63,437 bases of DNA from a virus: positions 1 through 63,437 of the IMG/VR virus record IMGVR_UViG_3300033407_000011. One strand, given 5' to 3'. Both the position numbers and the translations under genes were made by a program. This document shows, piece by piece, positions 602 to 63,437 of the stretch; position 1 is the stretch's first letter, and each line of letters starts with the position of its first letter. The notes under the pieces were generated by a model. It saw nothing but the letters and a program-made list of their open reading frames with translations, was not told the DNA's origin and ran no database searches.

Positions 602-603
602 AA

Positions 604-1395
604 TCACACTCCGGCGAAAATAATGTAATTCAAAATAATAGTTGGCTGAACATTGTTGTGCGCCGCATCGCCACCAGTCGAGTTGCTAGTTATGGTGCTG
701 GTCGTTGTTACCGCATTTTGAGAAATAACTGCATTACCTGTGGTCTGTGATCTGGTTGGTATAGTATGAGTATGTGCTGCTAATTGCGCTACAGTCAGAA
801 CGTGACTTTCTGTACCACCAGTGCCACCCAGTACATCCCCATCGACACCATCAGTCAATCCTGTCAATCTATCTGCACTGGTTCCACCCATATCATCCTG
901 ACCAGCAACCACCCTGCCACGTAGATCAGGAATACCGAAGGTTGTTGACCCATCACCAACACCATAAGTAGTGCTTATAACAGCAAAGAGAGCGGCGTAG
1001 GTCGTGCGACTGACATTCTGCCCGAAACATAACAACCAGAGCGAGGGTGCGGTAGACCCTCCATAGGGGATGATTGCCGCGAGAGGCGTTCCTGCATCAA
1101 CTTTTTCCGCAGACTGCGATGAAATCGTGCTGAAAACTTTTGCACTACCGGACAAGTCAAGTAATGATCCAGTACTGGAGGCGATCAGGTTACGGGTCAG
1201 TGTCGTGCCGGTGTGCGTATAAACACCAGAACCTTCCTCCCACGCAGTGCCATCGGTAATGGCATAATCAACTGTTTCACCATCCAATGCCGCAGGCATG
1301 ACCTGAAACCCGGAATCAGCGGCACCCAGCGTCACTGTGCCGGTGCCAGTCGTGGCTGTAGCAACCTTTACTCGGGGTGGAAATTTACGCGCCAT
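604..1395 (-). CDS. tail fibre protein with phage tail-collar domain
   Basis: 263 aa with a G/T-rich N-terminus. The block [58 protein letters not shown] matches the tail-collar consensus (GW..C.G..y..Lf...G......F.lPDLRGR). Confidence 0.8.
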
Positions 1396-1946: not shown

Positions 1947-1969
1947 AGTATAATATCCTTATTAATCAA

Positions 1970-2344: not shown

Positions 2345-2345
2345 A

Positions 2346-2567: not shown

Positions 2568-2577
2568 ATTCAAACCC

Positions 2578-5882: not shown

Positions 5883-5884
5883 GT

Positions 5885-9667: not shown

Positions 9668-9696
9668 ATCATTACTCCAATATAAATCACCATCAT

Positions 9697-48190: not shown

Positions 48191-48403
48191 ATGCAAGAAT
48201 CTGCCGTCTATTTCGGGATATTTATTACCTTCTGCCTGATTGCCTTTGCCATCGTCCTGTATAGAAAGTGGTTGACTACAGGTCAGGCCATCCTTGGCGC
48301 TCTGACCTTGGTGGCCATACTGGCCATACTGGATATTGTCCTGCTGGAACTGAAAGACGGGATCAGGACCGGGGAGCCTCCGCCGTACAGCTATCAGGAG
48401 TAA
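48191..48403 (+). CDS. small two-TM membrane protein
   Basis: VYFGIFITFCLIAFAIVLY and AILGALTLVAILAILDIVLL. Its 3' end overlaps the convergent minus-strand gene by 41 nt. Confidence 0.5.
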   Translation: MQESAVYFGIFITFCLIAFAIVLYRKWLTTGQAILGALTLVAILAILDIVLLELKDGIRTGEPPPYSYQE

Positions 48404-48893
48404 TGAAATATTCACCAGTCTCTACTCCATGCGTATCCTTGTTGTTACGTTGATCCAGCACGTAAGAGGAAATGTTCACCAGTTCATAACTGACAATCCG
48501 GAGTAGGATTTTTAACCAAGTGGCATAACATAGCTTCCCATCCGGCAGATCCCGACCACGGGTCCAAGTTTCCCCGGCGCGTGGTTTCCGTGAAGTAGCA
48601 ATGCAACCCAGATATCCGCAGTTTGCAGTGTCCTTGGGCGCACAGGCGGAAATGATGTACTCATTGTTATTGGTAAACAATCTGACCTTGATCTTTTCAA
48701 CGACATTCTCGCCAACTTCAGCATCACCTTCCTGCCGATGAATAATATCCACCAGAAAGTGAGTATCAAAATCGGCGTAGGCATTGCACAAGTCATCCCT
48801 GATCCAGTTCAGTAGATCTTCTGGTTTGGCAGCGACATGAGAAGCCTCTAATAAGGCTTGTTTGGAAGGATGATTGATGTTTTCATCGGTCAT
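48363..48893 (-). CDS. hypothetical protein downstream of the giant gene
   Basis: 176 aa with RBS GGAGG. Last gene of the leftward late arm. Confidence 0.6.
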   Translation of the reverse strand: MTDENINHPSKQALLEASHVAAKPEDLLNWIRDDLCNAYADFDTHFLVDIIHRQEGDAEVGENVVEKIKVRLFTNNNEYIISACAPKDTANCGYLGCIATSRKPRAGETWTRGRDLPDGKLCYATWLKILLRIVSYELVNISSYVLDQRNNKDTHGVETGEYFITPDSCTAEAPRS

Positions 48894-48973: not shown

Positions 48974-51900
48974 TCAATTTGGAGTGAGTACCGTCTCCGC
49001 ATACCGGCGATTGAAGAATGCCTGGCGCTTCCGGATCAGGCTGTCAATATCATCAATCCGGCGCTTTTTCTCATCTGATGGCAGGATATCATTGGCCTGG
49101 ATATCACGGCGGCGCTTACGCAGATCCCGCAACTGGTTCCGGACCGACCGATCCAGTAGACGTAATCTGGCTTGCGGGCTCTGGATGGCTTTCAGGCGTT
49201 CCTCACCCTGGAGTTGTTTAATCTGCTTGTCCACATACTGCACGTCCATGGAACGCTCATAATACCGCTGGCTGATGGCATACTTGTTATCGTAACCGTA
49301 CAGCCGGCGCAACATAGGCACTTCCCGGACTTCGATTTGTTCGCCAGTCACAGCCTTGTGTGCCAGGTTGAACGAATCCATTACCACCCGCCCGGCAGAA
49401 CCCGTGGAGAAATCCACGAACACATCAACCCATTCCGGGGAGATATCAACAGCACCCGGGCGGATTTCATCACCACCGGAAATATCATTCAGGAACTTGG
49501 TAAATTCCTTCGAGACCTCACGGGCACTGGACCAGTGTTGCAGGTATTGTGGTTTGGCGGGTCCAAACGGGATCTCCTGCGGTTTCAATGGCCGTCCGGT
49601 CCAGTCCTTGTTTTCAGCTATCTGGACGAACGGATCCACCACGGTTGGTGCGAGAGTCTGCAGGAAGGTGGCATGACCCACCGGGTTAAAGGCTTCGGCA
49701 ATGGCGGCTCCTATCCGGCTGGCACTGTGCCATGCGTCAAAGCGTTCGCCCGTCATTAATTCGCCGAACTGCTGGCCGACCACATGCAGGGCGTTATAAC
49801 CCCAGGGCAGCATGAATTTGAAGATCGGTTCCTTCTCGCCCATGATGACCCAGTACCGCTCACGGATATGATCCGGCAGGGCGTCGTAATAGTTCTCTCC
49901 GTCGTCATCGTCACCCGCTGCTGCACGGTTGATGATATCCAATACGATGGCCACGCCAATGGTCGCCAAGGCCAGCCTGCGCCCTTTTTTGCTGGTCAGC
50001 ATGGCTTGCAGCATACGCACCGAACCCTGTATGGAGGCATTATAGAACAGGTACATGGCATTCAGGGTCGGTCCTGCCATACCACGGCGGTTAAAGTTGA
50101 CGGTCAGGTTCTTGGCCAGCGCTGCCGCACGGGTATCACTCAGCCCTAGTTCCACGGCTTTGCGGAAGGCGGCCAGACGGATCCCGTTCTCCACCACACT
50201 GTTATAATCATCAATAAAGTCCAGCAGCTTCATAAAGGCATTGCGGCCAGATTTGCCAGCCTGGATCCGTTTCATCTGGTCGGCCAGCTTATGACTGCGC
50301 TCGTTGATATCGCGGTAATGTTCAATCCAGCCCGTCTTACCACCTGCCAGCCGGAACCGCTCGGCCCAGCCGCCCCATTCACTGTGCCTGTCCCCTTTAC
50401 GCAGGTTGGCACGCAGTCCTTTCAGGGCGCCAGGCACCATTTTCAGAACACTCAGTTCCGCCTTGCTGAGTTCAGTGTCCGTCATGTTATACAGGGCGGT
50501 TTGCAGGTCACGGGCAAAATTTGAGATCACAAATTCAGGTGACCAACTGGTATTCAGTTGCGCCAGGAACCGGTTGAGCCCCAGCAGAACGCGAGTCAGC
50601 CGCCCGATATCACCATGATCCAGGTTCTTCATGGCTTTCAGGATACGCATACCCACTTCATTCTTTTGATTAAAGGTAATGGTATGCACTTGACCATCCA
50701 CCTTGACCTTGAGTTCATTATCATATTCACGCGGATCATTGAACCATTTGACTTCGCCATCCTTGACCGTGCCCATCTTCTTCGGCACATCGACGGTCCA
50801 GAAGGACGAATCCTTGTGTTTCTGGGCGAACTTCAGCAAGGCTTGCGCCACCCGGTTTTTCTCTGACCGGATGATCGAGGCTTCATATTGCGCCACTACA
50901 TTGACCAGCACATCCACTACGTCGCGGGTGGAACCCAGCCGGCGCTTGCTTTCCGGGCCACGAACACTGAATCCTTGACCACGGCTGGGCAGGGTGGCGT
51001 GCGCTTCATCCCGCTTTAAGGGGACATAGTGCTGATAGTTGGCCTGCCAGGCTGCGGCCATTTCCTCGGAAATGAGATCGCCCTGGATCAACAGCTTGAC
51101 ACGGGCAGCGTTGATTTCATCAATCAGGGTGCCAAAACGCTGCAAGGCGTCGTTGTCCCGGTGCTTGGCGAGGATAGACTCAGCCTCGGCGTCACTCATG
51201 CCGGACAGGGCAGTGTTGTCCTCACGCTCAGGATTGATGCGCTGCAAATATTCGTTGGCTTCGCTGGCATGACGGGCATGAAGCCATTCATCCAGTTCGG
51301 CCATGGCAAGGCCGGTCTTGCCTGCCATTTCCAGCATGGGTTCGATCTTGTCCCGGTTGAACCTGTCCAATTGTTCACCCGCCCGGCCTTGCCAGATGCT
51401 CTCGGCCATGTAGACGTCTTCATCTTCCGCGACACCACCCGTATCCTCCTGCAGGTGTTTCAGGTCAATGAACTTGTCCTGAATGACATAGCGGATGGGA
51501 TCCAGCCTGCGAGTGGCATGTTCGAGGGTCTGGGCAAACTCGCCATGGGTGGGGGCTGTAGCAGCAGTGGTATCTCGGCTATACAGCAGGTTATTATCTA
51601 ACGCATCAATCCCAATTGAATCAAGGTCTGATACCAGAGACCCCGCAATACCTTGCGCCAGAAGTGGATGCTTTTGAGTCGTACCGGGTACATATTGACC
51701 TGCGACCCGACCAAGTTTCTCCACCCACCCGGCGTAGTCCGATTGTAAAACGGATGCGGTAATAACTGCCCTTTGTGCCGTAGTATCAGCAATGCCCATT
51801 CCAACCGGGAACGTGGATATAAGTCGGATAACTGGTCTTCCCTGCGGATTAATTCCAGTGGCGAAATGTTTTGCAGTGCCTTGAACATAATATTGCCCAT

Positions 51901-54900
51901 CCTTAAAAATGATATTTTTCAAGTCCGGAAGGCGGCGCTGTGCCAGTGCAGCCGAGGCCAGCAGCATCGCCTCCAAGTTATTAAAGTATAGTTGGCGTTT
52001 CTCGAAACTGCTAGTAGTATTTGTCTCAGGCCGCCACAACACTACCTTTATCTGCTCCAATCGTTCCCGGATATGCCAGTTGCGATCAGAAAACTCAGAA
52101 TGCCGGTCTGTTTCACGGGTGACATCCGCCAGTGCGGTCTGCTCATCCAGTTGGTTGTACATATCGTCCGGCAATAACCCGATAAACTGCCCGATATGTG
52201 GCTCCAGATGTTCACTGGTGCCGTATTTCAGCATGGAGGAGATCATGGCTTCGGTGCGGCGCAGACGATTAATAACAGTAATTGTACGATCCGGAACCAG
52301 CACCTTATTATTGTTACGTGCCCATGCCATGGCAATCTGGTACGCCCTTGCGCCACCACCACCACGGCGGCGGCCACCTGGGCTGAATATTTCCGCAAAG
52401 GGTGCCTTAGTGTCAGGATTATGGATGGTCACTATGGGTGTGGCGTACTGGCCTATCTCATCCGTTTTTGGCACCTTAATAACGAATATGGGCGGCTGGG
52501 TCTGTTCTTCCACTGTCCAGTCATAACCAGCAGCTATGTCCTGTACCAGGGTTTTTAAGTCCTTTGCATCGCTGGGCGGCGCCTGGAACGCTTGGTCACC
52601 ACGGGCAATGTAACTCTGCCACACATCAGCCAAGCGGGTGCGGTTGATGCTGGCTGCGTCCTCTGCAGGCTGGGCAGGCACGGGCGGTCGATAGGAAACT
52701 TCTTCACGTGTGGTTTGCCGGATGGCAGCCACAGCCATGCTCACCAGCATGTTCGGATCTAGGTTGCGAATTAAACCCAGTTGATACAGGAACCGTTTGA
52801 TAGCGGCCAGGATCCGTTTCACCAGCGGCAGTTCCTGATTGGCGCGTTCCTGCACCATGTAAGCAATGACTTCCTCGGTATAGTTACTGCGCGATGTATC
52901 GTCCGGCACCTTCAATGCCGCATTGGCAGCGGCCTCATTCAGTTTGCCATTCACGCCACGCTTGGCCAGTTTGAGTGCGGCGGCTACATGCGCCTTGGTC
53001 TGGATCCAGAGTTTATCACCCAGCATCTGCGGCATCCCGTAATGAACGCCAACCTCATGCAGTAACACGGCATAGGCATTATTGATATCAGCCTCATTCA
53101 GGCTTAACCGGTTGGCGATCAGGAAGGTCTTGCCCGCCTTGCGATCAAACCAGCCAGCCACGTCTCCGGCATTTTCTGCCAGCGCCCAGTTCGGCAGTTC
53201 GCGCTTGGTGGAAATGATCTTGAACCGGCCTGAGTCCATTAACTGCTTCCAGGCTTTATGTCCCAGCTTGTCACGCAAGTATTGTTCTACGGCCTCACCG
53301 CTTGGACCAGTGCTGGTATCCATGACCGGCGCTTCAGCCCCCCGGCTCATCAGCATGTCTTCATCGGGTTCGCCGGCAATCTCCACGACCGGATCATTCT
53401 TGATGGTGATCTTGAACGGCTCCATCTTGCCCAGCGGGAAAAAGAACCGGGCAGTATAGTTAATGCGTTCCGAGATCAGGCCGCGATCCTGTAAATTGGC
53501 TGACCAGCGGTAACGATCAGCGGCGGGCAGGATCAGTTCCATGCGTTGCTCACCGGAGACCATACGCTTGGCAATCTGCCAGCCATTGGCCAGGATCAGG
53601 GTCTTACCGTCCTTCATCACCGCATTGTGCAGTTCCGCAGGCAACATCTGGACGCTGGCACGTTCAGCACCCAGGTTTTTCAGTACGGCATTAATCTGGG
53701 CGCTGGGGATCTGCATCCCGATAAACCGTTCATGGCTGTCAGTGGTCTGGGCACGCACGACGCGCACGCTGCGATCCCCTTCATGGACAATCCGGCTCCA
53801 GATGGGGAGGACGGCACCCACAATCATGTGCGTGTCGGCGGACTTGATCTTGGGTGCTGTTTCAAAAGCCTCCTGCCAGTGAGTGGCGGCACTCTCCAGC
53901 GACTCGATTTGTTTCCAGTTGCCTGCCATGTAATAGGTGCCATCATGATACTTATGCTGGACAACCTCGCTGTATTCGACCGCCTTGCTGCCTGTTGGGT
54001 CATACCGGCGCAGTTGTTTCACGACCTTACCTTCCTTGGTGGTCTTGTCCACAGTCGGTAGGAAGGCGGCAAACTTGTTGGACAGTTCATTTACCGCATA
54101 CACGGCTTCATGCAATACCTTGCGGCGTTCAGCCAGATCCAGAAATTCGGTGAAGGTCATCGGGTGCAATGGTGTTTCTACATTCAAACGGACATACTTG
54201 GTGACTGCGCTTGTCCCTTCATGCGTATGTACAATACGTTCCTCTTTTTTCTCGACCCGATCCCCGGTGACATTCTCGATGCCGACATCAAAATCGCCGA
54301 TTTCACGGTGGTAATCCACCACCTGCTGCAACCGGTGAAAGAAAGCCTCAAAGACCTCATTTTGACGCGCTGTTTTCAGTGACAGGATCCGGTTCAGGAA
54401 TTGCTGAATGGTCGGGGTCTTCTTGTCAGAAACATTCCCTTCTTCATCCCGCAAATTGATCCACATTTCATGCTCCAGCGTAGCAATACTGAGGCCCTCC
54501 ATGCCTTCCAGTTTGTTCCTGGCCAGATCCCGCACCATGCCACGCAGGGCTTCTTCGGAATACACGGTTTCCAGATTATGCTCGGCGCTGAATATCCCCT
54601 GCGACCCGGCTTCACGCTGGCCTTTAGTGAGCGCACCCAGTTGATCCAGGCGCCTGGCCACTGAGGAAATAAACCGCAGGTGCCCCTTGAGATCGGTGGT
54701 TACCAGCACATAATGCGGGGCTTGTTTCTGATTGGATCGGTGCGTCCGGCCAAAACCCTGCACGGCATTATCAGCACGCCAGCCAGGTTGCACCAGATAA
54801 TGGAACCGCTTGCGCTGGTTCTTACGCCTGAGATCCGCATGAAAGTCCTGGCCGGTACCGCCTGCATCGGAGAACACCATGATCTTTTTCTTGTCCTCCA

Positions 54901-57900
54901 TGAATTGGGAAATATCGGCACCCACCGCAGTCGCACTGCGCCTCTCCCAAGCCTTTTTTCCTTTCTTTGTGACCAGACGACGGGATCTGCCGGTGACCTC
55001 AGCCACCTGGCTCACGCCAAAATGATCAATAATCTGATCCAGCGGGCCGTGAGGTATAGCAATCGTTGCGATCATGTCCAGCATCTGGTCGCGGATGGCC
55101 ACGGCCTCGGCAGAGATCACCGGGTTGCCCTGCGAATCCTCCACCAGTGTCATGATCTTGTTGCCGTTACTGTCAACTGTTTCCTCGTATTTATGGATCG
55201 GAAAGGAAGATTCCAGAAACTGCATGATGGATTGGCGCGGGGTAATGTCCAGTTCATCCAGTGAGATCCCCTCATTGGCCGCCTGTGCGGCAGCGCGTTC
55301 GGTTTGCGCTTCATTGGTATTCACCAGTTGCAGCACGATACTGTGTTCTTCCTCGAGGCGTTTCTCAATGTCCTCGATCAGGGATGGCATCTGCATGGAA
55401 GTCAATACCTGGTTAAAAAACCGCTGGTGCGCTCCCCAAAAGGCGGACAAGGCGGATGATTTTGCATTCTTGGCCTTGACCTTGCCTTCCTCATTGACAG
55501 CACCAATCGCTTCCAGTGCCACACCAATGTTCTGTAATATGACTTGCCACCCTTCGGCCATCACATCGTACATTTCAACCTGTTCCGGCGTGAGTGCGTG
55601 GGTCAGTTGGCCGTAAGTCACATCATGGTAGGACAGGGAACGGGCGCCATACATACCCAGTGCTTTCATGTCCTGGGCGACCAGTTCCATGGCGGCGACA
55701 CCCTTGCTGCTGATAGCTTCGATAAAGGCCACGTTGTCTGCAAACGGCGTGCCTTCACCCCAGAGCCCAAGGCGGCTGGCATAGCCCAGATTATTGACCT
55801 CGGTGGCACCTGTGGCAGATACATATAAAATCCGCGCCTGTGGCACCTTGGTCTGCAACTCCACGCCAGTCAGGGCTGTTTGTGAGGGTTTGGTCCGGCC
55901 ACGTTTGCCTTTCATGGCAATCACATTTCCTAATTTATGGGCTTCATCAAACGCGATCACGCCATCAAAGTCTGGTCCGAGCCAGTCTGCAATCTGCTCC
56001 ATGCGGGATTTACCGCCGCTTTTCGTGGATGCCTGGCGCAGGGTGCCGTAAGACACAAACAACACGCCTTCCGTCAGAGTGATCGGATCTTCCGGTTTCC
56101 AGCGTTTAATGTTGGTAATGATCTTGTTCGCATCTTCCCCGGTGACACTGTTCCAATCCCGCCGTGCCAAGTCCAGTAATTTGTCATCCTTGGTGATCCA
56201 GATATGGCGCTTCCGGCCACGGCGGATGTTATCCGTCATCACCCCAACAACTTCACGCGCCTTGCCGAGACCAGTGTTGTGATGCACCAAACCGCCAGCA
56301 ATGTAGTTCTCCGGCCCTGGTACCCACATATCATAGAATTCAGCACGTCCTGATAATTCTATGGACACAATCCTGTCCCATCCCCCATAATATTGACATG
56401 AGGAAACCACGAAACTCGATCCCAGAGCAGGCGGTACCGCAGGTAATCGCAGATTATCAGGCTGGTGTTCCAACGACTGAACTTGCGAATCGTTATGGCG
56501 TGACACCGCCGACTGTGGCCTGCCTTCTAATGAAATATGGCATTCAGATTCGTTCTCGTTCTGAGATAAACGCGCTGCGTGCGCCTGTAGATGATGAGCG
56601 TCTGCGCCAGTTGAATGATGAAGCGCAACTGAACCACCAGCAAATTGCCCATGAGTTGGAAGTATCGACGGCGACTGTTGAGCGTCGTCTACGAGCTCTG
56701 GGTTTGAAATCAAAGAAGGGTCGCGGCTCTCCAATGGAGAAAAATTACTTTTGGAAAGGTGGCCAGATGACGGACGCCGATGGCTATATTCTCCTGAAAT
56801 GTCCTGACCATCCGCACAAGAATGCACAGGGATATGTGCGTGCTCATCGCCTTGTAATGGAGCAAATTCTTGGCCGTTATCTGGATCGTCTTGAAGTCGT
56901 ACACCACATTGACGGAGATACGCAGAATAACGTCCCAGACAATCTTCAGGTGTTTGCCTGTAATGCGGATCATCTTCGGCATGAATTGACTGGGCGGACG
57001 CCGAATCATTCTCCGGCAGGGCTTCGGCGGATGCGAGAAAATGCCCAACGCTTAAACCGTCTACGATACGCATCCAGCCGGAAGGTGTGAAAAATTTATG
57101 ATTTACCGTAACTTGTACTGAACGGCCACTTTGCATAACGACCCGATACAGATCATCCTCGCCTTTTTTGAATGGCGCTTGAGCATTAAAAGCCTCGAAA
57201 CCATCAGCAGTCAACGATAGCACCCTGATTGGCCTGCCAGCCTCAGCCAATGTCTTGATAGGCGTTTCTATCCCAGTGTCTGGGTTAAGGATCAGCGTAT
57301 CTCCAGCAACACATCCGTCGCCAATGAAGTAGCCGCGCCGCTCTCCATTGGGCAGCATTTTATCGTGGGCATCGCCCGCCCGGATGATTTGTTCAATCTG
57401 GGCATTGGACAAGGCGCCTGACTCAATGGCTTTCTTCGGCAGGTTAGGCACATAACTGGTCGATGGTGGCGTGACCGTGGCCATGGCCGCAGATTCGACC
57501 AGGGTGCCAGGGTGTGGCTTGGAACCCGGCAGTGTGATAAATGGCTGATACGCATCGAATACTGCGTCCGTCAATGCCTGATGCTGCATGATATTTTCTA
57601 CGCGATCCAGTGCAGCATAATCGCTGGTGATTTCAATGTTCTTGTTGGTAGTTTTGCCGTTATCACCGTTTTGCGTCAGTTCATTGGCAAACTGGATGGC
57701 ATACGGCCTGACCCCTTCCCCGAAATTACGGATCAGGAATTTAAAGAATTCTTTTAAGGACTTGCCAGCGGCCTTGAATTCAGACCAGGCTTTCTCGAAA
57801 TGGGGTTTGGCACGGGCATAGGTCAGATCATCAAAGCCCGCAGGGAAGGATTTTAGGGCGTTGCCGCCGAATAATTCATAGAGACCGGTCAGTGCTTCGG

Positions 57901-60900
57901 ATACCCCTTTGGCGCCGTGATCAGCCGCCTCAGTCAGGATATCGGTCAGTTCTCGACCATGGCCTCCTCGATCCAACTGCGCACCGCTACCTGGGCGCCG
58001 TCCAGTGCCAGCACTTCCAGGTCGCTGGCCTCCAGTGGGTTCAACTCCGGATCTTCCAGTATCTTCATCACCACCTTGGGCGGCAACGTCTCCAACTGGT
58101 TCAACGCCTGCTCCAGCAGGGAATTGACCGGTGGCGGTTCCAGCCGCGCCAGTTGTAGCAGGTACAGCGTCTCCGGCCCGGCTTCCGTACCCAGCAGTTT
58201 CTTGGCGGCCTGATTGATCGGAGTATTGTTCTCCGGGATAAACTCTGTCATTGCGTATCTCCTCCAGGGCTTCTATCGTATTGGACAAGTTTTCCAGTGC
58301 ATTATTCGCCTTGAATTCAGTAGTAAGTATAATGCTTGTAGTAGGTCCTGTCTTGTCAATTATCACAATTTGTTTATCAAACGTGGTACCAAACTTACGG
58401 TAACCCTCGCCGGACAGGCCGATATTGGCACGGACATTGTAACGGCGCTGGATTTCACGCCAGAAACCACTGGCTTGCGCCTTGTTCAATGCCAGTCCTT
58501 CACCCACCAGCGCGACCAGCCGGCCACCTGGCGCCAACCGGGTCAGCGCCTGCTCGATATGGTTCATGGACACACTACTGTCGCGGCTCCCAGGCACCCG
58601 TCCTGCCGTTGCAGTAAAGGGTGGGTTCATAATCACGACAGTCGGTACTTCTTCCGCTGCCAGAATGTCATGCAGGTGCGCAGCATCCTCCCGGGTCGGG
58701 TGTTCTGTGGTCAGCATTTCCAGCAGATTGGCACGGCGATCACTCAGTTCATTCAGGATCAGTGAATTCGCGCCAAACATCTGCGCCAATGTGGCCAGAT
58801 TGCCCGTGCCGGCACTGGGCTCCAGCACAATATCATCCCGGTTCAAATTAGCTGCCCGTGCCATCACATAGGCGATGGTATGAGGCGTGCTGAATTGCTG
58901 GAATTCCATCTGTTCCTCAGTCCGCTTGGTCTGGGTGGTCAGATTATTGATGGCGCTATTCAGTAAGGACAGTTCTGTTTTGGCCGTGGTCATATCCGAT
59001 AACTTGATATCACGAACAACAGCCTCGTTTGTTAATAACCACTGGTTAAAGGCGATCTCCATAGCGTCATACGCATCACGCGGGGTATAGACGCCCTCAG
59101 CCTGCGTGCCGCCATACGCCTGATCCGCCAGTTTGAACAAGTCCTGCCACGATAATGGTGTCTTGAATCCACGCTCGAACAAGGCCGCTACCAGCTTCGT
59201 TGCCGGTGTCTTTTGATCCGTGCCAGTGTTCTCCTGCTCCGCTTCCTCGGTTTCGGACAGGGCCTCATCAAACAGGTTTTCCAGATCCTCGGTGCTCAGA
59301 TCCTGGATATCATCCGGTGGAGCAAAAGTGGGGCTGTCTACCATGGATTCGCGCAGTTGACGGACTTCTTCTTCAGCCTTTTCCTGTGCGGCTTTGTCCT
59401 TTAACGCCTTGGCCTCGGCTTCAATCTTGGCCTCCGATGACCTCATCACTTTATTGCCAGCGGGCAATCCATTTTCAATCTTGTCCAGTGCTTCCAGCAG
59501 TTCCCCGATGTGTTTTTTGATCGGGTACTGGTCTTCCGCCACCTTGATGACCGGGTAACCGTCTTCGCCGATAGCAATGTCTTTCAGGAACTGTTCAAAC
59601 AATTCATTGAATGCCTGGCGTTCCTCATCAACCGGATAGGGTGTACCGCGATAACCGGCACTCTTGGTGACCTTGCCATCTGCCACCCAGTCACTGACCA
59701 GATAGGTGTCCATGCCACCCAGCGTATCAAAGACAAAGGCTTCCGCAGCGCGGGCGAACATTTCCCGCTTATTGCCCCAGTAGTCCTTGCCCAACGCGTT
59801 GGCGTGTTTGAAATAATCTGTTTGGGAGCCAGCAGAACTCCAGGCATCACCCCTTTCACCATTCCTGACAAAACCATTCAGACCACTACGCAACCGGGTA
59901 ATGGCATGACGTGCATTCCACAGCCGGCCATTGTGTTTGCTGCTTGTCCAAAAGGTATGGCCGGAGAGAAAATCTGCAACACGTGCCGCCATTTTCTCCG
60001 GTGTGGTCAGTTGATAACGCAACAACCCGATGAACTGCTGCAGATACGGGTGTAATGTTTCATCGTCATGCGCCACCTGCTGGCCGTGGTGTTTGTTCCG
60101 GAGCATGTAATCAATGGCATGGAAATACTCATGATTCACGGTGCCATCGCCGTGGGTATTGGTCAGGTTGATAACGGGCGTGACCTCACCGGTCGGGTTG
60201 TTTTCCTGGTCCAGTACCGGGTGACGATTGCTGTAATGGGCGGCATGGCGGCCATGCCCCAGAGCACCAAAGGCCAGCACCAGGCGGTTACCGAACCCGA
60301 TCTGCGCCAGCTCCCAGCCCAGTTTCTCCGCCAGATCCATGAACGCGTCATAGGCATAGTTACTGTGATCCTGTAATTGTGTGGACGTGACGTAGTTGCC
60401 GACCGTAATCCCCTTGAATCCAAACGTGGTCTGTAACTCCTCCAGCGTGATGTTCTTGCCTTTACGGTGATCGCGCAGCCCTTCCCGTTCTACCCGGTCG
60501 AATTTGGGACGTATCAGTTTGTTGACAGCGCCGCCGCGCTTGGCGGCTTGATCGTCGTCGAACCGGTAGGTAATAGATTTGGCAACCCGTTCTGCGGCAT
60601 GTTCCGAGTCACCTTCCACCTTCATCAGGTAACTGCGGTAACCCTTAAACACATCTTCCACGGTACGCATGTTATAAAAATATTCATGCGCATAATTGTT
60701 CATCGTATTGACGTACTCGGTAGCCGCATCCCGGACTTCATCCAGCCTTTTCTGCCAGCCTTCATTTTCTACGCTGGATTTACTGATCCGGCCTTCACTT
60801 TTATTGCTGGTATAGACATAACCCTCCAGCATGCCCGCCGGGTCTTTGTAGTTATACCCGGTGATTTTCCGTGAGACCCACTGTTTCGGCAGGGATAATT

Positions 60901-62977
60901 TGCTGCGGACATACTCCATGGCCAGTGTTGTCCCCGGTGTAGCGTCGCCATCCAGAATGAACGGGAAGGACGAGGCCCGGTCTGCGTGTTTGAAAATGTC
61001 CTCAATGCCTTTCCGGATGGCTTCATCAGCAGCCAAGGCGGTACTCCAGCGCAGATCCATCATGCGTTTCAATTGCGGCCCGATGCCCTCCATCTTGGCA
61101 CCGCGTTTTGCGCCCACTTTATATTCTGCCATGAAGTTCTGTGCCGCTTCATAGCCACTGCGCAACAAGGGCAAATCGGTGGGTGTTGGGTAATCAGCGG
61201 TTGGCAGGTTGGATAATGTCCCGCCGCCCAAGGCATGATCCCAACCCGCCTGTAAAACTCCCACATCCTCATCGCTCAGATTGTTGTCTGCCTGTTCTTT
61301 GGCCAGGTAATCCGCCATGATCTGGGCTGAGGCTTCACGCCATTCCGCCCGGCGTTTTTCCGCCTCCTGCCGTTGCTTGACCTTATTGGCCTCGGTCAAC
61401 GCCCCATTGAAATATTGATCGCCGAAGATGGCCGGATTCATGGCATTTCCTTCCATCAGTTGATCCAGTGCCGCCAGATAGTCTTTCAGGAATGGGGCTG
61501 ATTTGTTCTGGGCTTTGGCATTCTTCCGGGCGGTCTCAATCGCGTCCAGTAATGCTTGGGTCAGTGCAGACTTGAACGCTTCATAATGCTGTCCTGCGGC
61601 CTGCAAAACTCCCACATTGTTCATGGCTTCTTTATGCACATTGCCCTGCACCAGTGATACATCCACGGTCGGGTTGGCGGGTTTGAAATTGCGGTTGATG
61701 TACTCATCAACTACCTGTTTCAGCCGCTGCGGATTATTTAATGCTTCTGTGATGTAGTGTTTGAACGGTTCACGCAATGAATCCGGCATGGCGTAACCAG
61801 CAACATTCTCAACAATACCAGGCAGGATTTCCATGATTTTGCTGGTGATTTCTTTATCACGCCGGTTACGGTTGGTCTGGGTGTCCTTGAAGCCTTTTGA
61901 CAAGGCAACGGCCAATTCGCGCAATGATTGATCCTGGTTCAACTGCACCTGGACTGATTTTGCCGATGCCTCGTACCATTCTATTCTGGTATCCTCTTGA
62001 GTGGGGTACAGTAATTGATCACTGTCACTGTCCGGATGCCCAGCGAAAATCTTGCCGTTATAGGCGATATACCCAATCAGGGTGACACCCTCATACACCA
62101 GCGGGAATGCTTCCAGTTCAGAGGCGCCGAAATTACCAGTTTCACGCACTTGATCCCATTTACGGCTGGCATCCGCCAGAGATTCGACCGGGTAACTTTT
62201 ACCCATGAATTCCACCCGCAAGCCTGGTGACGTAGTGGCAATATCAGTTCCCGGTGCTGCCTCTACACTGTCAGAGACCGGTTTTTTGGTCCTGCCCTTG
62301 GCCAGCCATTCCTTGAACTGTTCCTGGGTCATTTCCGTAATGGCGCCCAGTCCTTGCCAGCCCTTGGTATAGTTGCGCTTATACATGACGCGGGCGGCAC
62401 CTTGAGAGCCGTAACCCAGCATGACCTTGTGCTCGTCAAACTTGCCGGTTTCCGGGTTAATCTGGTCAATGACATACACATTGCCCTGCCAGTCTTCTGC
62501 AATACCAGGCTTCACAAACACATCAATCTGTTCACCGTCCTTGCCCTCGGTCCGGTTGAAATAGCCATAATGATCATTCAATTCCGGCCATTCCGGGCGG
62601 CGGCGTGAGCCCTGCGGGTTCTCAATGGCAATATCCAGCCCCATGACCTGGATATGACCTTTCTGATAGTTCCCGGCCTCTTTCTGGGCAGCGGTGGGTT
62701 GTAACAGGTCATTTTCGGGTGAAGTGGCGGCAATGTGGGCAGCATCGTCCACAGTGACAGCGGGTTCGGCAAACTCGGGTTTCTGCTCCAGCACTTGCTG
62801 GATCAGGTTGCGTCTCTCGTCCAGCAAGCTGCTGATATGATCGTTAATGGCACGTTCGGCGGCATCCTTGGCGGTCAGATCCTCCTCACTCATCAACTCC
62901 TGTTGGCTGCCCAGCAGGATCGCGGCCTCGTGTTCTCCCAGTCCAAGTTGTTGCAGACATTGTTTCAGTGAGGCCAT
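48974..62977 (-). CDS. 4,667-aa polyvalent (DarB-like) protein: pyrophosphatase-like, zincin, N6-methyltransferase, intein-split strawberry-notch helicase, second HExxH region and a C-terminal membrane-associated region
   Basis: A single 14,004-nt ORF. ATG 62977 overlaps the TGA of the repeat gene (TGATG). Motifs are listed in the sub-features. Confidence 0.9.
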   Translation of the reverse strand: MASLKQCLQQLGLGEHEAAILLGSQQELMSEEDLTAKDAAERAINDHISSLLDERRNLIQQVLEQKPEFAEPAVTVDDAAHIAATSPENDLLQPTAAQKEAGNYQKGHIQVMGLDIAIENPQGSRRRPEWPELNDHYGYFNRTEGKDGEQIDVFVKPGIAEDWQGNVYVIDQINPETGKFDEHKVMLGYGSQGAARVMYKRNYTKGWQGLGAITEMTQEQFKEWLAKGRTKKPVSDSVEAAPGTDIATTSPGLRVEFMGKSYPVESLADASRKWDQVRETGNFGASELEAFPLVYEGVTLIGYIAYNGKIFAGHPDSDSDQLLYPTQEDTRIEWYEASAKSVQVQLNQDQSLRELAVALSKGFKDTQTNRNRRDKEITSKIMEILPGIVENVAGYAMPDSLREPFKHYITEALNNPQRLKQVVDEYINRNFKPANPTVDVSLVQGNVHKEAMNNVGVLQAAGQHYEAFKSALTQALLDAIETARKNAKAQNKSAPFLKDYLAALDQLMEGNAMNPAIFGDQYFNGALTEANKVKQRQEAEKRRAEWREASAQIMADYLAKEQADNNLSDEDVGVLQAGWDHALGGGTLSNLPTADYPTPTDLPLLRSGYEAAQNFMAEYKVGAKRGAKMEGIGPQLKRMMDLRWSTALAADEAIRKGIEDIFKHADRASSFPFILDGDATPGTTLAMEYVRSKLSLPKQWVSRKITGYNYKDPAGMLEGYVYTSNKSEGRISKSSVENEGWQKRLDEVRDAATEYVNTMNNYAHEYFYNMRTVEDVFKGYRSYLMKVEGDSEHAAERVAKSITYRFDDDQAAKRGGAVNKLIRPKFDRVEREGLRDHRKGKNITLEELQTTFGFKGITVGNYVTSTQLQDHSNYAYDAFMDLAEKLGWELAQIGFGNRLVLAFGALGHGRHAAHYSNRHPVLDQENNPTGEVTPVINLTNTHGDGTVNHEYFHAIDYMLRNKHHGQQVAHDDETLHPYLQQFIGLLRYQLTTPEKMAARVADFLSGHTFWTSSKHNGRLWNARHAITRLRSGLNGFVRNGERGDAWSSAGSQTDYFKHANALGKDYWGNKREMFARAAEAFVFDTLGGMDTYLVSDWVADGKVTKSAGYRGTPYPVDEERQAFNELFEQFLKDIAIGEDGYPVIKVAEDQYPIKKHIGELLEALDKIENGLPAGNKVMRSSEAKIEAEAKALKDKAAQEKAEEEVRQLRESMVDSPTFAPPDDIQDLSTEDLENLFDEALSETEEAEQENTGTDQKTPATKLVAALFERGFKTPLSWQDLFKLADQAYGGTQAEGVYTPRDAYDAMEIAFNQWLLTNEAVVRDIKLSDMTTAKTELSLLNSAINNLTTQTKRTEEQMEFQQFSTPHTIAYVMARAANLNRDDIVLEPSAGTGNLATLAQMFGANSLILNELSDRRANLLEMLTTEHPTREDAAHLHDILAAEEVPTVVIMNPPFTATAGRVPGSRDSSVSMNHIEQALTRLAPGGRLVALVGEGLALNKAQASGFWREIQRRYNVRANIGLSGEGYRKFGTTFDKQIVIIDKTGPTTSIILTTEFKANNALENLSNTIEALEEIRNDRVYPGEQYSDQSGRQETAGYGSRAGDAVPATTGAAGTATGQFPAGAGVEPVGDVAAQGGDEDTGRSGVEPTGGQRPGSAGTGRRPGSGAQLDRGGHGRELTDILTEAADHGAKGVSEALTGLYELFGGNALKSFPAGFDDLTYARAKPHFEKAWSEFKAAGKSLKEFFKFLIRNFGEGVRPYAIQFANELTQNGDNGKTTNKNIEITSDYAALDRVENIMQHQALTDAVFDAYQPFITLPGSKPHPGTLVESAAMATVTPPSTSYVPNLPKKAIESGALSNAQIEQIIRAGDAHDKMLPNGERRGYFIGDGCVAGDTLILNPDTGIETPIKTLAEAGRPIRVLSLTADGFEAFNAQAPFKKGEDDLYRVVMQSGRSVQVTVNHKFFTPSGWMRIVDGLSVGHFLASAEALPENDSASAQSIHAEDDPHYRQTPEDCLGRYSAYLRQCGVRLQDDPDNGQEFAPLQGDEHAHIPVHSCADGQDISGEYSHRRPSSGHLSKSNFSPLESRDPSLISNPELVDDAQQSPSILPTHGQFAGGSVALHHSTGADAHHLQAHAARLSQNENESECHISLEGRPQSAVSRHNDSQVQSLEHQPDNLRLPAVPPALGSSFVVSSCQYYGGWDRIVSIELSGRAEFYDMWVPGPENYIAGGLVHHNTGLGKAREVVGVMTDNIRRGRKRHIWITKDDKLLDLARRDWNSVTGEDANKIITNIKRWKPEDPITLTEGVLFVSYGTLRQASTKSGGKSRMEQIADWLGPDFDGVIAFDEAHKLGNVIAMKGKRGRTKPSQTALTGVELQTKVPQARILYVSATGATEVNNLGYASRLGLWGEGTPFADNVAFIEAISSKGVAAMELVAQDMKALGMYGARSLSYHDVTYGQLTHALTPEQVEMYDVMAEGWQVILQNIGVALEAIGAVNEEGKVKAKNAKSSALSAFWGAHQRFFNQVLTSMQMPSLIEDIEKRLEEEHSIVLQLVNTNEAQTERAAAQAANEGISLDELDITPRQSIMQFLESSFPIHKYEETVDSNGNKIMTLVEDSQGNPVISAEAVAIRDQMLDMIATIAIPHGPLDQIIDHFGVSQVAEVTGRSRRLVTKKGKKAWERRSATAVGADISQFMEDKKKIMVFSDAGGTGQDFHADLRRKNQRKRFHYLVQPGWRADNAVQGFGRTHRSNQKQAPHYVLVTTDLKGHLRFISSVARRLDQLGALTKGQREAGSQGIFSAEHNLETVYSEEALRGMVRDLARNKLEGMEGLSIATLEHEMWINLRDEEGNVSDKKTPTIQQFLNRILSLKTARQNEVFEAFFHRLQQVVDYHREIGDFDVGIENVTGDRVEKKEERIVHTHEGTSAVTKYVRLNVETPLHPMTFTEFLDLAERRKVLHEAVYAVNELSNKFAAFLPTVDKTTKEGKVVKQLRRYDPTGSKAVEYSEVVQHKYHDGTYYMAGNWKQIESLESAATHWQEAFETAPKIKSADTHMIVGAVLPIWSRIVHEGDRSVRVVRAQTTDSHERFIGMQIPSAQINAVLKNLGAERASVQMLPAELHNAVMKDGKTLILANGWQIAKRMVSGEQRMELILPAADRYRWSANLQDRGLISERINYTARFFFPLGKMEPFKITIKNDPVVEIAGEPDEDMLMSRGAEAPVMDTSTGPSGEAVEQYLRDKLGHKAWKQLMDSGRFKIISTKRELPNWALAENAGDVAGWFDRKAGKTFLIANRLSLNEADINNAYAVLLHEVGVHYGMPQMLGDKLWIQTKAHVAAALKLAKRGVNGKLNEAAANAALKVPDDTSRSNYTEEVIAYMVQERANQELPLVKRILAAIKRFLYQLGLIRNLDPNMLVSMAVAAIRQTTREEVSYRPPVPAQPAEDAASINRTRLADVWQSYIARGDQAFQAPPSDAKDLKTLVQDIAAGYDWTVEEQTQPPIFVIKVPKTDEIGQYATPIVTIHNPDTKAPFAEIFSPGGRRRGGGGARAYQIAMAWARNNNKVLVPDRTITVINRLRRTEAMISSMLKYGTSEHLEPHIGQFIGLLPDDMYNQLDEQTALADVTRETDRHSEFSDRNWHIRERLEQIKVVLWRPETNTTSSFEKRQLYFNNLEAMLLASAALAQRRLPDLKNIIFKDGQYYVQGTAKHFATGINPQGRPVIRLISTFPVGMGIADTTAQRAVITASVLQSDYAGWVEKLGRVAGQYVPGTTQKHPLLAQGIAGSLVSDLDSIGIDALDNNLLYSRDTTAATAPTHGEFAQTLEHATRRLDPIRYVIQDKFIDLKHLQEDTGGVAEDEDVYMAESIWQGRAGEQLDRFNRDKIEPMLEMAGKTGLAMAELDEWLHARHASEANEYLQRINPEREDNTALSGMSDAEAESILAKHRDNDALQRFGTLIDEINAARVKLLIQGDLISEEMAAAWQANYQHYVPLKRDEAHATLPSRGQGFSVRGPESKRRLGSTRDVVDVLVNVVAQYEASIIRSEKNRVAQALLKFAQKHKDSSFWTVDVPKKMGTVKDGEVKWFNDPREYDNELKVKVDGQVHTITFNQKNEVGMRILKAMKNLDHGDIGRLTRVLLGLNRFLAQLNTSWSPEFVISNFARDLQTALYNMTDTELSKAELSVLKMVPGALKGLRANLRKGDRHSEWGGWAERFRLAGGKTGWIEHYRDINERSHKLADQMKRIQAGKSGRNAFMKLLDFIDDYNSVVENGIRLAAFRKAVELGLSDTRAAALAKNLTVNFNRRGMAGPTLNAMYLFYNASIQGSVRMLQAMLTSKKGRRLALATIGVAIVLDIINRAAAGDDDDGENYYDALPDHIRERYWVIMGEKEPIFKFMLPWGYNALHVVGQQFGELMTGERFDAWHSASRIGAAIAEAFNPVGHATFLQTLAPTVVDPFVQIAENKDWTGRPLKPQEIPFGPAKPQYLQHWSSAREVSKEFTKFLNDISGGDEIRPGAVDISPEWVDVFVDFSTGSAGRVVMDSFNLAHKAVTGEQIEVREVPMLRRLYGYDNKYAISQRYYERSMDVQYVDKQIKQLQGEERLKAIQSPQARLRLLDRSVRNQLRDLRKRRRDIQANDILPSDEKKRRIDDIDSLIRKRQAFFNRRYAETVLTPN
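49934..49980 (-). other. predicted transmembrane helix near the C-terminus of the giant protein
   Basis: RRLALATIGVAIVLDIINRAAAG (aa ~4333-4350), followed by an acidic DDDDGE run. Confidence 0.45.
52778..53290 (-). other. region (aa ~3230-3400) with a second HExxH motif
   Basis: NNAYAVLLHEVGVHYGMPQMLG. The HEVGVH motif is at aa 3307-3312 (53042..53059). Confidence 0.4.
56362..56391 (+). promoter_or_regulatory. speculative promoter for the antisense HNH gene (would give a leaderless mRNA)
   Basis: TGGACA (56362..56367), an 18-nt spacer, then CATAAT (56386..56391). The ATG lies 7 nt downstream and there is no Shine-Dalgarno sequence. Confidence 0.2.
56398..57090 (+). CDS. HNH homing endonuclease with two N-terminal HTH motifs, encoded antisense inside the intein
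   Basis: 230 aa. GVPTTELANRYGVTPPTVACLL and LNHQQIAHELEVSTATVERRL are HTH motifs. GYVRAHRLVMEQILGRYLDRLEVVHHIDGDTQNNVPDNLQVFACNADHLRHE is the HNH motif. Confidence 0.8.
   Translation: MRKPRNSIPEQAVPQVIADYQAGVPTTELANRYGVTPPTVACLLMKYGIQIRSRSEINALRAPVDDERLRQLNDEAQLNHQQIAHELEVSTATVERRLRALGLKSKKGRGSPMEKNYFWKGGQMTDADGYILLKCPDHPHKNAQGYVRAHRLVMEQILGRYLDRLEVVHHIDGDTQNNVPDNLQVFACNADHLRHELTGRTPNHSPAGLRRMRENAQRLNRLRYASSRKV
58298..58930 (-). other. domain (aa ~1350-1560): N6-adenine DNA methyltransferase
   Basis: Motif I VLEPSAGTGNLA (E at aa 1386, 58802..58822) and motif IV VVIMNPPF (aa 1451-1454, 58616..58627). Confidence 0.8.
59798..60460 (-). other. domain (aa ~840-1060): zincin-like metallopeptidase module (HEYFH)
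   Basis: FGFKGITVGNYV...LAFGALGHGRHAAHY...INLTNTHGDGTVNHEYFHAIDY. The HExxH motif is at aa 949-953 (60119..60133). Confidence 0.5.
62294..62695 (-). other. domain (aa ~95-228): inorganic-pyrophosphatase-like module of polyvalent proteins
   Basis: AGNYQKGHIQVMGLDIAIENPQGS...GEQIDVFVKPG...VYVIDQINPETGKFDEHKVMLGYGS. The assignment is from memory of the InPase-type domain. Confidence 0.45.
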
Positions 62978-63437
62978 CAGATGCTCCGCCGTAACGCCAG
63001 TAGATCCACGATATCCTGCATATCCTGATTGTCCTGGGCTTTCAAGTCAATCGCATAGGGATTATAGCGCAACAAGTAGTCAGGCCAGTCATCGGCACCA
63101 GCCTGTAGTGTTTCAACAGTTACAATATCCACGGTAAGAATTATATTGTCTGCTGTATGACCATGAACCGCATCAGTGATCGACAATAATATAGAGCCAT
63201 CGTCAATGGTCAGTGTGACATTATCAGCCGTGTGGCTGTGTTCAGCATCCTGTACGGTCAGCACATGAAGCTGTGTTAATGTGAGATTATCTGCCTCATG
63301 CGAATGTTCAGCGTCCTGAACGACAAGAACATGGGCCTGCGTTAATACCAGATTATCTGCCGTATGCCCGTGAACGGCGTCATCAATATTTAACAGGTGC
63401 AGTTGGGTCAGATCCAGATTGTCAGCCGTGTGGCTGT
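62977..63437 (-). CDS. 3' part of the wrap-around HxH-repeat fibre-like protein
   Basis: Open from the window end down to TGA 62979..62977. It contains ...VQDAEHSHTADNVTLTIDDGSILLSITDAVHGHTADNIILTV... and the non-repeat tail WPDYLLRYNPYAIDLKAQDNQDMQDIVDLLALRRSI. Confidence 0.75.
   Translation of the reverse strand, partial: SHTADNLDLTQLHLLNIDDAVHGHTADNLVLTQAHVLVVQDAEHSHEADNLTLTQLHVLTVQDAEHSHTADNVTLTIDDGSILLSITDAVHGHTADNIILTVDIVTVETLQAGADDWPDYLLRYNPYAIDLKAQDNQDMQDIVDLLALRRSI
63407..63437. repeat. 31-bp terminal overlap identical to bases 1..31 (circular closure)
   Basis: GTCAGATCCAGATTGTCAGCCGTGTGGCTGT is present at both ends of the window. Confidence 0.95.

Follow-up and report, generated by a model that had tools for sequence, protein, structure and literature searches.

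The 63,437-nucleotide (nt) stretch of viral DNA analyzed here (positions 1 to 63,437 of IMG/VR record IMGVR_UViG_3300033407_000011, hereafter called the window) carries on its minus strand an open reading frame (ORF) of 14,004 nt, which raises the question of what a single phage gene of that size encodes. As the sequence-only reading had stated, the ORF is uninterrupted and takes up 22% of the genome: 4,667 codons precede its stop, and no stop occurs among them. We consider it likely that this is a single genuine gene, that it encodes a phage-type polyvalent protein and closes the late (virion) operon of an uncultured podovirus, that the helicase motor of this protein is split by an intein, and that the centre of the intein is, on the opposite strand, a gene for an HNH homing endonuclease. 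This judgement is a joint one and covers the whole explanation, including those steps that we infer. The intein and the antisense gene were absent from the sequence-only reading and became the main new result. The features on which they are defined are as follows.

48974..62977, minus strand: giant ORF, 4,667 amino acids (aa), likely precursor of a phage-type polyvalent protein (ORF listing, translation, Pfam domains)
57314..57610, minus strand: strawberry-notch helicase, N-extein, with the first half of Walker A at its end (…GYFIGDG) (alignment with intein-free homologs)
56276..57313, minus strand: class-1 intein (C1 … TVNH … HHN, then T+1), aa 1889-2234, 346 aa (Pfam Intein_splicing, E 3e-12; TIGR01445; DnaB inteins in the PDB)
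55565..56275, minus strand: start of the C-extein, TGLGKAR and the strawberry-notch P-loop domain AAA_34 (to aa 2471), DEAH at aa 2344 (Pfam PF13872, E 3e-104)
54275..55045, minus strand: Helicase_C_4, aa 2645-2901, FGRTHRSNQ at aa 2742 (Pfam PF13871, E 6.6e-85)
56398..57090, plus strand: antisense homing-endonuclease gene, 230 aa, two helix-turn-helix (HTH) domains and HNH_3 (Pfam HNH_3 and HTH_24)
56362..56391, plus strand: candidate sigma-70-like promoter, TGGACA-N18-CATAAT (consensus match), ending 6 nt before the HNH ATG

The helicase P-loop had been quoted in the sequence-only reading as one motif, GDG-TGLGKAR. Both halves are present, but apart: GDG occupies aa 1886-1888, TGLGKAR starts at aa 2235, and 346 residues separate the two. 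The split Walker A motif reads …GYFIGDG/CVAGDTLI … GLVHHN/TGLGKAR…, where slashes mark the junctions. The Pfam intein-splicing match spans aa 1900-2234. Homologs that lack the intein read GDGTGxGKxR at this site (P0002, with 60% identity; P0003-P0008; L163), and the more distant homolog P0001/L001 carries an insert of exactly 346 aa at the same place. The catalytic residues C1, T69, H72, H345, and N346 of the intein are invariant, with Thr at position +1. In an AlphaFold2 model the splicing blocks, intein residues 1-98 and 311-346, form a confident β-rich Hint fold with a pLDDT score (predicted local distance difference test) of ~90, and Foldseek matched the model to the Ssp DnaB and Mtu RecA mini-inteins (E 5e-8). 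Judged by its sequence and its predicted fold, the insertion is a canonical class-1 intein that has kept all canonical catalytic residues, and splicing is predicted. Its centre, a passenger linker between the splicing blocks, looks unstructured in the modeled sense frame (pLDDT ~30 for residues 99-308). Since the intein splits Walker A, the helicase could work only after protein splicing. A split intein, or fractured gene, was considered as well and rejected, as the sense frame runs on unbroken. Searched by profile, IMG/VR yielded 80 viral loci with a strawberry-notch helicase 42-53% identical to that of the giant protein; the intein is present in 2 of them, and the other 78 are without it.

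What occupies the centre of the intein is the reverse complement of an ATG-initiated 230-aa HTH-HTH-HNH gene, and the same arrangement is found in L001. Both Pfam matches of the antisense ORF exceed their cut-offs (HNH_3, E 6e-10, 39 bits versus 24.8; HTH_24, 26.8 versus 21.9). The HNH protein is 58% identical (76% similar) to its L001 counterpart without a gap, whereas translating that DNA in the sense frame gives 28% identity; ungapped identities of 58-65% are shared with many intact relatives. To compare the two frames, the differences between the window and L001 were counted by sense codon position (positions 1, 2, and 3). In the two splicing blocks the counts are [22,21,58] and [5,6,25], so most differences fall at position 3, as against [68,129,54] in the intein centre, where most fall at sense position 2, equivalent to HNH-frame position 3. 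Six strawberry-notch-type inteins (all 15 pairs) and about 80 pairs from other hosts show this order as well: differences are most numerous at position 3 of the HNH frame, and position 2 has the lowest count or one at most 3 above it. When the HNH gene was shuffled synonymously, the sense frame was stop-free in 0.16% of the shuffles, and the mean was 5.1 stops. The codon-position pattern and the shuffle test together argue for selection on the antisense protein and, separately, on an open intein frame. In its own frame, the antisense HNH gene thus experiences purifying selection, and all that is maintained in the sense frame is freedom from stops. A degenerate in-frame endonuclease domain in the intein centre was rejected as a candidate, since the sense frame has no family match, is conserved at 28% versus 58% for the antisense frame, and varies most at its position 2.

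The antisense gene also appears to have expression signals of its own. No Shine-Dalgarno sequence was found before the HNH ATG of the window, and the candidate promoter ends 6 nt upstream of that ATG, so the HNH mRNA would be leaderless. The same promoter geometry is seen in L001 (TTGACA-N18-TATAAA-N6-ATG), L083, and L082, and in L244 the -10 hexamer and its 6-nt distance from the ATG are retained. Ribosome-binding sites of the AGGAGG type take the place of such a promoter in L164, L211, and many terminase-type loci. As far as sequence signals go, these features fit an autonomous antisense gene, possibly one that is read early by the host RNA polymerase into a leaderless mRNA.

The arrangement is not confined to strawberry-notch helicases. 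Relatives of the HNH protein number at least 498 among viral sequences and 881 in the protein database, and 80 viral and 80 genomic loci were obtained with the HNH alignment as query. The HNH gene lies antisense within an open frame of at least 300 codons in 72 of the best 80 viral loci, and similarity to the N- or C-block of the intein flanks it in 70 of these 72 (both blocks in 51). The two frames stand in the same phase in 81/82 such loci. The junctions fall in Walker A motifs, namely, GDG/TGxGK (strawberry-notch), G../[ST]GK[ST], and GK/T, and the host genes were identified by Pfam as terminase large subunits, a DEAD/ResIII helicase, and others; most of the about 70 other loci with an antisense HNH intein are terminase P-loops. 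Because gene callers would skip an HNH gene that lies inside a longer ORF, the arrangement may have gone unannotated in many phage terminases.

Cultured phages are among the carriers. In Pectobacterium phage Ymer (L246, OP748252.2), a 754-aa "hypothetical protein" that adjoins the portal gene (1074-3338, minus strand) is a terminase large subunit with a P-loop intein, inside which lies an unannotated 232-aa antisense HNH ORF (2447-3145, plus strand). Matches to the HNH protein also occur, likewise at corresponding positions in the genome, in Pectobacterium phages Abuela, Sabo, Taid, Pappous, Koroua, and Amona and in Dickeya phage Setonix, Ymer alone having been looked at in detail. Providencia phage PSTNGR2lys has a free-standing, same-strand HNH relative. 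In a plasmid-like context with ParA, a resolvase, and a Tn3 transposase (L244, 10001-12225; L245), a 470-aa N-terminal strawberry-notch fragment overlaps a called HNH gene whose product is 61% identical to that of the window; by its sequence this fragment looks like a decayed remnant of the same intein-bearing gene.

Whether all these loci amount to a large, so far undescribed family of P-loop-targeting inteins is, in our estimate, an evenly balanced matter. Such a family would be defined by an HTH-HNH endonuclease that is encoded antisense in a single fixed phase and is equipped with a promoter or ribosome-binding site of its own, would sit unannotated in many phage terminases, those of cultured Pectobacterium phages included, and would here have jumped into the motor of a virion-delivered antidefense protein. 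Splicing could then serve as a timing switch, with the helicase inactive until assembly or delivery is complete. In the full-text literature searched, no intein with an antisense HNH gene was found to be reported; the coverage of that literature is incomplete, so that this is absence of evidence only.

For LAGLIDADG nucleases, antisense genes within contiguous inteins have been described (Gorbalenya 1998; Gogarten 2002). Antisense VSR-like nucleases in actinophage inteins were added by a 2025 preprint that lists HNH as an in-frame type only and proposes extein switching between nucleotide-binding sites (bioRxiv 10.1101/2025.01.02.630785). The inteins of Synechocystis DnaX and of actinophages with antisense LAGLIDADG or VSR-like nucleases resemble the present one in being contiguous, with a centre that is the reverse complement of a nuclease gene and an open sense frame, and in their insertion at nucleotide-binding sites with extein switching between P-loop proteins. 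They differ from it in that here the nuclease is an HNH protein with two HTH domains, found at about 70 loci in a single phase in Gram-negative and uncultured phages. Terminase inteins of the classic P-loop kind (PMC5050341) share the Walker A insertion, and their splicing blocks are related, with P0021 and L027-type terminases matched by the intein of the window, but here the host protein is a helicase presumed to be injected rather than a terminase, and the endonuclease is antisense. Free-standing-type nuclease genes inside intervening sequences are likewise known from split-intein "fractured genes" (PMC2677866) and from ShiLan (PMC11855218). In the former the nuclease gene has the same orientation and the host gene is broken in two; in the latter the same-strand, out-of-frame HNH insertion lacks a splicing domain.

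Antisense intein nucleases are currently described as rare curiosities, yet a single search with one HNH lineage gave about 70 inteins, which suggests that intein surveys and phage annotation systematically miss them. The intein/HNH pair is a natural and deeply conserved case of antisense coding with complete overlap: selection acts on one frame for its function and on the other just for freedom from stops. With Ymer and its relatives available in culture, expression, splicing, and homing are directly testable.

We then return to the protein that harbors the intein. Its remaining modules are listed below.

62303..62689, minus strand: InPase (type-I inorganic-pyrophosphatase-like), aa 97-225, AGNYQKGH at aa 101 and DEHKVMLGYG at aa 181 (Pfam PF18823, E 7e-44)
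60074..60487, minus strand: zincin-like metallopeptidase 1, aa ~831-968, HEYFH at aa 949 (NCBIfam CLCA_X, phrog_18947, HExxH motif)
59576..59800, minus strand: LPD1, aa 1060-1134 (Pfam PF18796, E 1.2e-12)
58343..58957, minus strand: N6-adenine DNA methyltransferase, aa ~1341-1545, EPSAGTG at aa 1386 and NPPF at aa 1451 (motifs; phrog_9133 and phrog_6263 "DNA methyltransferase", E 1e-10)
57938..58210, minus strand: G/A/R/P-rich low-complexity linker, aa ~1590-1680 (composition)
52718..53230, minus strand: putative zincin 2, aa ~3250-3420, HEVGVH at aa 3307 (motif)
52184..52609, minus strand: LPD37, aa 3457-3598 (Pfam PF18853, E 3.6e-13)
48977..51514, minus strand: conserved C-terminal module, aa 3822-4667, with LPD38 at aa 4362-4555 (Pfam E 3e-39; phrog_14770, phrog_616, phrog_10691)

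The domain order is therefore InPase, zincin-like module with LPD1, N6-adenine methyltransferase, linker, strawberry-notch superfamily 2 (SF2) ATPase, a second HExxH region, LPD37, and an 846-aa C-terminal module that contains LPD38. The modules and motifs that had been proposed from the letters could be recovered: InPase, LPD1, AAA_34, Helicase_C_4, LPD37, and LPD38 all score above the Pfam gathering score, and the quoted motifs AGNYQKGH, DEHKVMLGYG, HEYFH, EPSAGTG, NPPF, DEAH, FGRTHRSNQ, and HEVGVH were located at the positions given in the two lists. The ~1,300-aa C-terminal part with a transmembrane helix fared less well, as one hydrophobic helix is present (aa 4335-4354) but the conserved module measures ~850 aa. 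The first zincin matches NCBIfam CLCA_X at E 3.9e-23 with 82 bits, below the model cut-off of 260. The segment of the second is kept in 15/80 of the related loci, and HESMH stands at the equivalent place in P0031.

The enzymatic core has the layout of a methylase-helicase dyad, in which an EcoKI/TaqI-type N6-adenine methyltransferase is joined at its C-terminus to an SF2 ATPase: EPSAGTG and NPPF (motif I and NPPF/Y) are followed by the strawberry-notch (Sbno) ATPase from aa ~1790. AAA_34 and Helicase_C_4 are both present, and the helicase is 38-60% identical to proteins named strawberry notch family; the methyltransferase region aligns with the methyltransferase half of bacterial methyltransferase/strawberry-notch proteins. 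Catalytic motifs are intact in the methyltransferase (motifs I and IV) and in the helicase (Walker B, motif VI GRTHRSNQ, and, once the intein is out, Walker A). Neither the methyltransferase nor the helicase extein gave a meaningful match when its sequence was searched against the PDB.

Is such a protein exceptional? The sequence-only reading had held its combination of modules and its size to be unusual, and here our data disagree. A close-pattern search for the helicase in viral contigs gave nothing; the alignment-based search that gave the 80 loci showed that helicase-bearing ORFs measure 2,493-6,032 aa (median, 3,912; 60 complete cases) and are common in uncultured viral contigs of 25-90 kb. 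Counted over these 80 loci within the fetched flanks, the methyltransferase adjoins the helicase in 77, the C-terminal LPD38 module and the second zincin occur in 15 each, zincin/LPD1 in 12, InPase in 8, and LPD37 in none. L001 combines methyltransferase and strawberry-notch helicase with the intein; L163 has the same two modules together with a zincin and the LPD38 module, in ~3,400 aa and without an intein. L163 has been called as two overlapping genes (235-6081 and 6057-10502) split by one frameshift, which is probably a frameshift or a sequencing error in a metagenomic contig. The recurrence of module junctions in independent contigs rules out a chimeric assembly and points to the combinatorial shuffling typical of polyvalent proteins. 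Genes for 3,000-6,000 aa are routine in uncultured phages, with N-terminal effectors shuffled onto one conserved C-terminal module. What is unusual about the giant protein is the absence of its strawberry-notch helicase from deposited phage genomes: tblastn with the helicase extein against 50,697 deposited phage records gave no match.

This absence bears on the kinship with phage P1 DarB that the sequence-only reading had suggested. The methylase-helicase layout and the functional analogy hold, as both proteins have an N6-adenine methyltransferase followed directly by an SF2/SWI2-SNF2-type ATPase, with DarB being virion associated and presumed to protect incoming DNA in cis. The helicase differs, being of the strawberry-notch family, and the methyltransferase reaches no more than "DarB-like" annotations: its matches are "DarB-like antirestriction" proteins (24-28% identity; phages Parlo and Skulduggery) and, weakly, phage N6-adenine methylases, and P1 was not among its matches in the phage collection (the presence of P1 there was not confirmed). 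Since no deposited phage has this helicase, the resemblance to DarB is one of architecture and presumed action and not of demonstrated homology. The ~1,450-aa methyltransferase/strawberry-notch proteins of bacterial chromosomes and mobile elements (e.g., P0003-P0008) are 38-44% identical to the core. They share the methyltransferase, AAA_34, and Helicase_C_4 but are stand-alone and intein free, whereas the core of the window is embedded in a 4,667-aa phage protein. Strawberry-notch-like ATPases have been noted in "a few instances" of polyvalent proteins in a survey that describes the methylase-helicase dyad and does not mention inteins (PMC5512222).

The same survey defined InPase, LPD1, LPD37, and LPD38 from polyvalent proteins and reported InPase and LPD38 in the phage type only, in virion-gene neighborhoods (PMC5512222). 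With several effector and LPD domains and a neighborhood of virion genes, the giant protein keeps its assignment to this class (Iyer et al. 2017, PMC5512222). The late-operon context holds too. The ORF shares a minus-strand block with genes for the terminase (25521..27059), portal, major head protein, internal virion protein, and tail fibers, and start/stop overlaps connect it with its upstream neighbors: TGATG joins a repeat-protein gene to the giant ORF, and TAATG joins to the repeat-protein gene a 95-aa ORF, which is located downstream of the tail-fiber gene 604..1395. The claim that the giant gene ends the operon has to be corrected, since a 176-aa ORF follows 3′ on the same strand; the giant gene is next to last. 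The two immediate neighbors are as follows.

62977..63437, continuing from 313..1 over the circular junction, minus strand: 3′ part of the upstream repeat-protein gene, whose TGA overlaps the ATG of the giant ORF
48363..48893, minus strand: 176-aa ORF downstream of the giant ORF, without a family match

Virion packaging, also proposed in the sequence-only reading, has its support in homology. Over 99% of its length, the 846-aa C-terminal module shares 33% identity with the end of phi24B vb_24B_48 (gp47), a 2,807-aa protein whose gene is likewise the last large one of the structural block. By proteomics, gp47 is abundant in virions, it is invisible in the cryo-electron microscopy reconstruction, and it has been proposed as an encapsidated ejection protein with a trans-periplasmic conduit role (bioRxiv 10.64898/2026.04.10.717836). 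The two giant proteins have in common LPD1, LPD38, a zincin peptidase (putative here), the ~850-aa C-terminal module, and the position at the end of the virion block. They differ in their N-terminal cargo, which is LPD5 and MuF-C in gp47 and InPase, methyltransferase, strawberry-notch helicase, and LPD37 here, and the protein of the window is 1,860 aa longer and carries the intein. It can thus be described as methyltransferase/strawberry-notch cargo added to a phi24B-type virion-protein scaffold.

More broadly, the C-terminal module matches 345 phage records (Shiga toxin [Stx], Vibrio, Ralstonia, and Burkholderia phages) and three large PHROG families, in each case at the family's C-termini. 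AlphaFold, with a 60-sequence alignment, predicted a confident, mostly helical structure (pLDDT 87.5; predicted template-modeling [TM] score 0.85), which superposes with a TM score of ~0.9 on the C-terminal pieces of many viral polyvalent proteins whose N-terminal cargo differs (lytic transglycosylase, RelA/SpoT, type I methylase). Alignment and model together suggest a conserved packaging and ejection module with exchangeable N-terminal effectors. Without a solved fold, the module is a good target for learning how podoviruses package and eject megadalton cargo. At the other end of the protein, the InPase region (aa 107-234, ~62276-62659) matches the last 128 residues of a solved phage portal ("gp19 Portal", chain L of PDB 9b41; E 4.5e-22); by this match, an InPase-homologous domain lies inside a capsid in a determined structure.

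Taken together, the giant ORF probably encodes a virion-borne polyvalent methyltransferase-helicase protein, with packaging, injection, and antirestriction read from sequence and by analogy. In the sequence of events that we propose, the precursor would be made late, and the intein would splice itself out, which would restore GDGTGLGKAR and with it an active motor; the expected peptide across the spliced junction is …GYFIGDGTGLGK…. The C-terminal module would take the protein into the capsid, from which it would be ejected with the DNA, as proposed for phi24B gp47, and the zincins may cut it into units. In the new cell, the methyltransferase-translocase pair would modify the incoming DNA or shield it against restriction, as P1 DarB does, and the InPase would clear pyrophosphate or a nucleotide signal. 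The antisense HNH gene would be a selfish passenger with its own sigma-70-like promoter and a leaderless mRNA. Its product would cut intein-free alleles at the P-loop codons in coinfecting relatives, and repair would copy in the intein (homing). The intein lineage itself would have come from terminase P-loop inteins by extein switching between nucleotide-binding sites.

Several points weigh against this explanation. Expression, packaging, and splicing in this genome are all deduced from its sequence, and packaging goes back to 33% identity of one module with a protein reported in virions by a preprint. A Foldseek search of the PDB with the model of that module gave no match (best E 0.9), and because its fold matches nothing solved, its role in delivery is a guess. 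DarB, the closest characterized analogy, appears not to be a homolog, and the helicase is missing from the deposited phage records, as described above. The second zincin is recognized by its motif, and the first falls below its NCBIfam cut-off. As to the intein, low pLDDT in its centre is not proof of disorder, and nuclease activity of this HNH copy is putative. The candidate promoter lies in DNA that is constrained by intein coding, and promoter-like matches are no better than chance in number (3 found versus 1.9 expected).

These reservations give room to other readings, which differ in which part of the explanation they replace. An artificial origin of the 14-kb ORF, through chimeric assembly or through a sequencing error that fused neighboring genes, receives practically no credence from us and was rejected. 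The assembly is a short-read-style circular one with a 31-nt terminal overlap, and a neighboring gene has near-identical repeats; however, these repeats lie outside the ORF, each inter-module junction is found in independent contigs, sixty complete relatives measure 2,493-6,032 aa, and no frame break occurs over 14 kb. A protein made late but left unpackaged, which would act in the producing cell by modifying progeny DNA before packaging or as a replication/recombination helper, is improbable in our view. It would account for the methyltransferase/strawberry-notch proteins P0003-P0008, which occur in bacterial chromosomes and mobile elements with no virion context, and it fits the presence of the C-terminal LPD38 module in just 15/80 related viral loci, within the fetched flanks, and the fact that packaging is argued by homology. 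It is at odds with the presence of the full C-terminal module of the virion protein gp47, with the translational chaining of the giant gene to tail-fiber genes, and with the restriction of InPase and LPD38 to phage-type polyvalent proteins in virion-gene neighborhoods.

Somewhat less improbable, but still unlikely, is the idea that the gene is mainly a structural ejection or conduit protein, with degenerate or accessory enzymatic modules and an over-interpreted antirestriction role. The phi24B authors propose just such a conduit role for gp47, and the C-terminal module, with its single hydrophobic helix, is the only part conserved across the phage group; against this stand the intact catalytic motifs of methyltransferase and ATPase and the 45-60% identity of the helicase to many relatives, which argues for retained activity, and the structural and enzymatic roles are in any case compatible. 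The alternative to which we give the most weight, though we doubt it, concerns the antisense HNH ORF, which could be a relic that is no longer expressed or active in an intein that has become fixed and immobile. Decay of the endonuclease once the intein is fixed is what the homing cycle predicts, the plasmid-like contig L244 holds a truncated strawberry-notch/HNH remnant, and the promoter call is weak. Yet the ORF is full length, with its HNH residues kept and ungapped similarity to many intact relatives, its position-3-biased divergence shows long-term purifying selection, and the sporadic occupancy of the site (2/80 relatives) is as expected of an active element. The reading of a virion-borne polyvalent protein whose helicase is split by an intein with an antisense HNH gene remains the likely one.

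The remaining observations concern the genome as a whole. Both ends of the window have 31 nt in common, so the window is a circular assembly of 63,406 bp. With the 31-nt overlap removed, the repeat-protein gene reads through the junction and encodes ~245 aa of ~20-aa HxHxADNLxLTQxHxL repeats, without a family match; Tandem Repeats Finder did not pick up these degenerate repeats. The gene holds two near-identical ~90-nt copies, and its repeat number may for that reason be collapsed in the assembly. No tRNA was found in the window and no terminator after the giant ORF. The portal is 39% identical to Stx-phage (Sepvirinae) portals and 47% identical to that of Achromobacter phage CF418P1, and megablast of the giant ORF and the rest of the window against the 50,697 deposited phage genomes gave no match except 230 nt of a cytosine methylase. 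From these portal identities and the lack of nucleotide-level similarity, the window appears to be an uncultured, distant relative of the group of phi24B/933W, Ralstonia GP4, and Vibrio podoviruses.

The sole stretch with nucleotide similarity to deposited phages (~31990-32220; 76-84%) is part of a C5-cytosine DNA methyltransferase and is common to Xanthomonas phages, Salmonella phages, and EBPR podovirus 2; the genome thus has a second methyltransferase besides that of the giant protein. A free-standing HNH/endonuclease-VII-like gene (1395-1946, minus strand; PHROGs 1035 and 374) adjoins the tail-fiber gene 604-1395 in the late operon and is a second, separate gene of the homing-endonuclease type. 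Finally, an ORF in the early block (46009-46932, plus strand) matches a "terminase large subunit" PHROG over its C-terminal part alone (E 1.5e-20); it may represent a nuclease domain standing by itself and is distinct from the true terminase (25521-27059).

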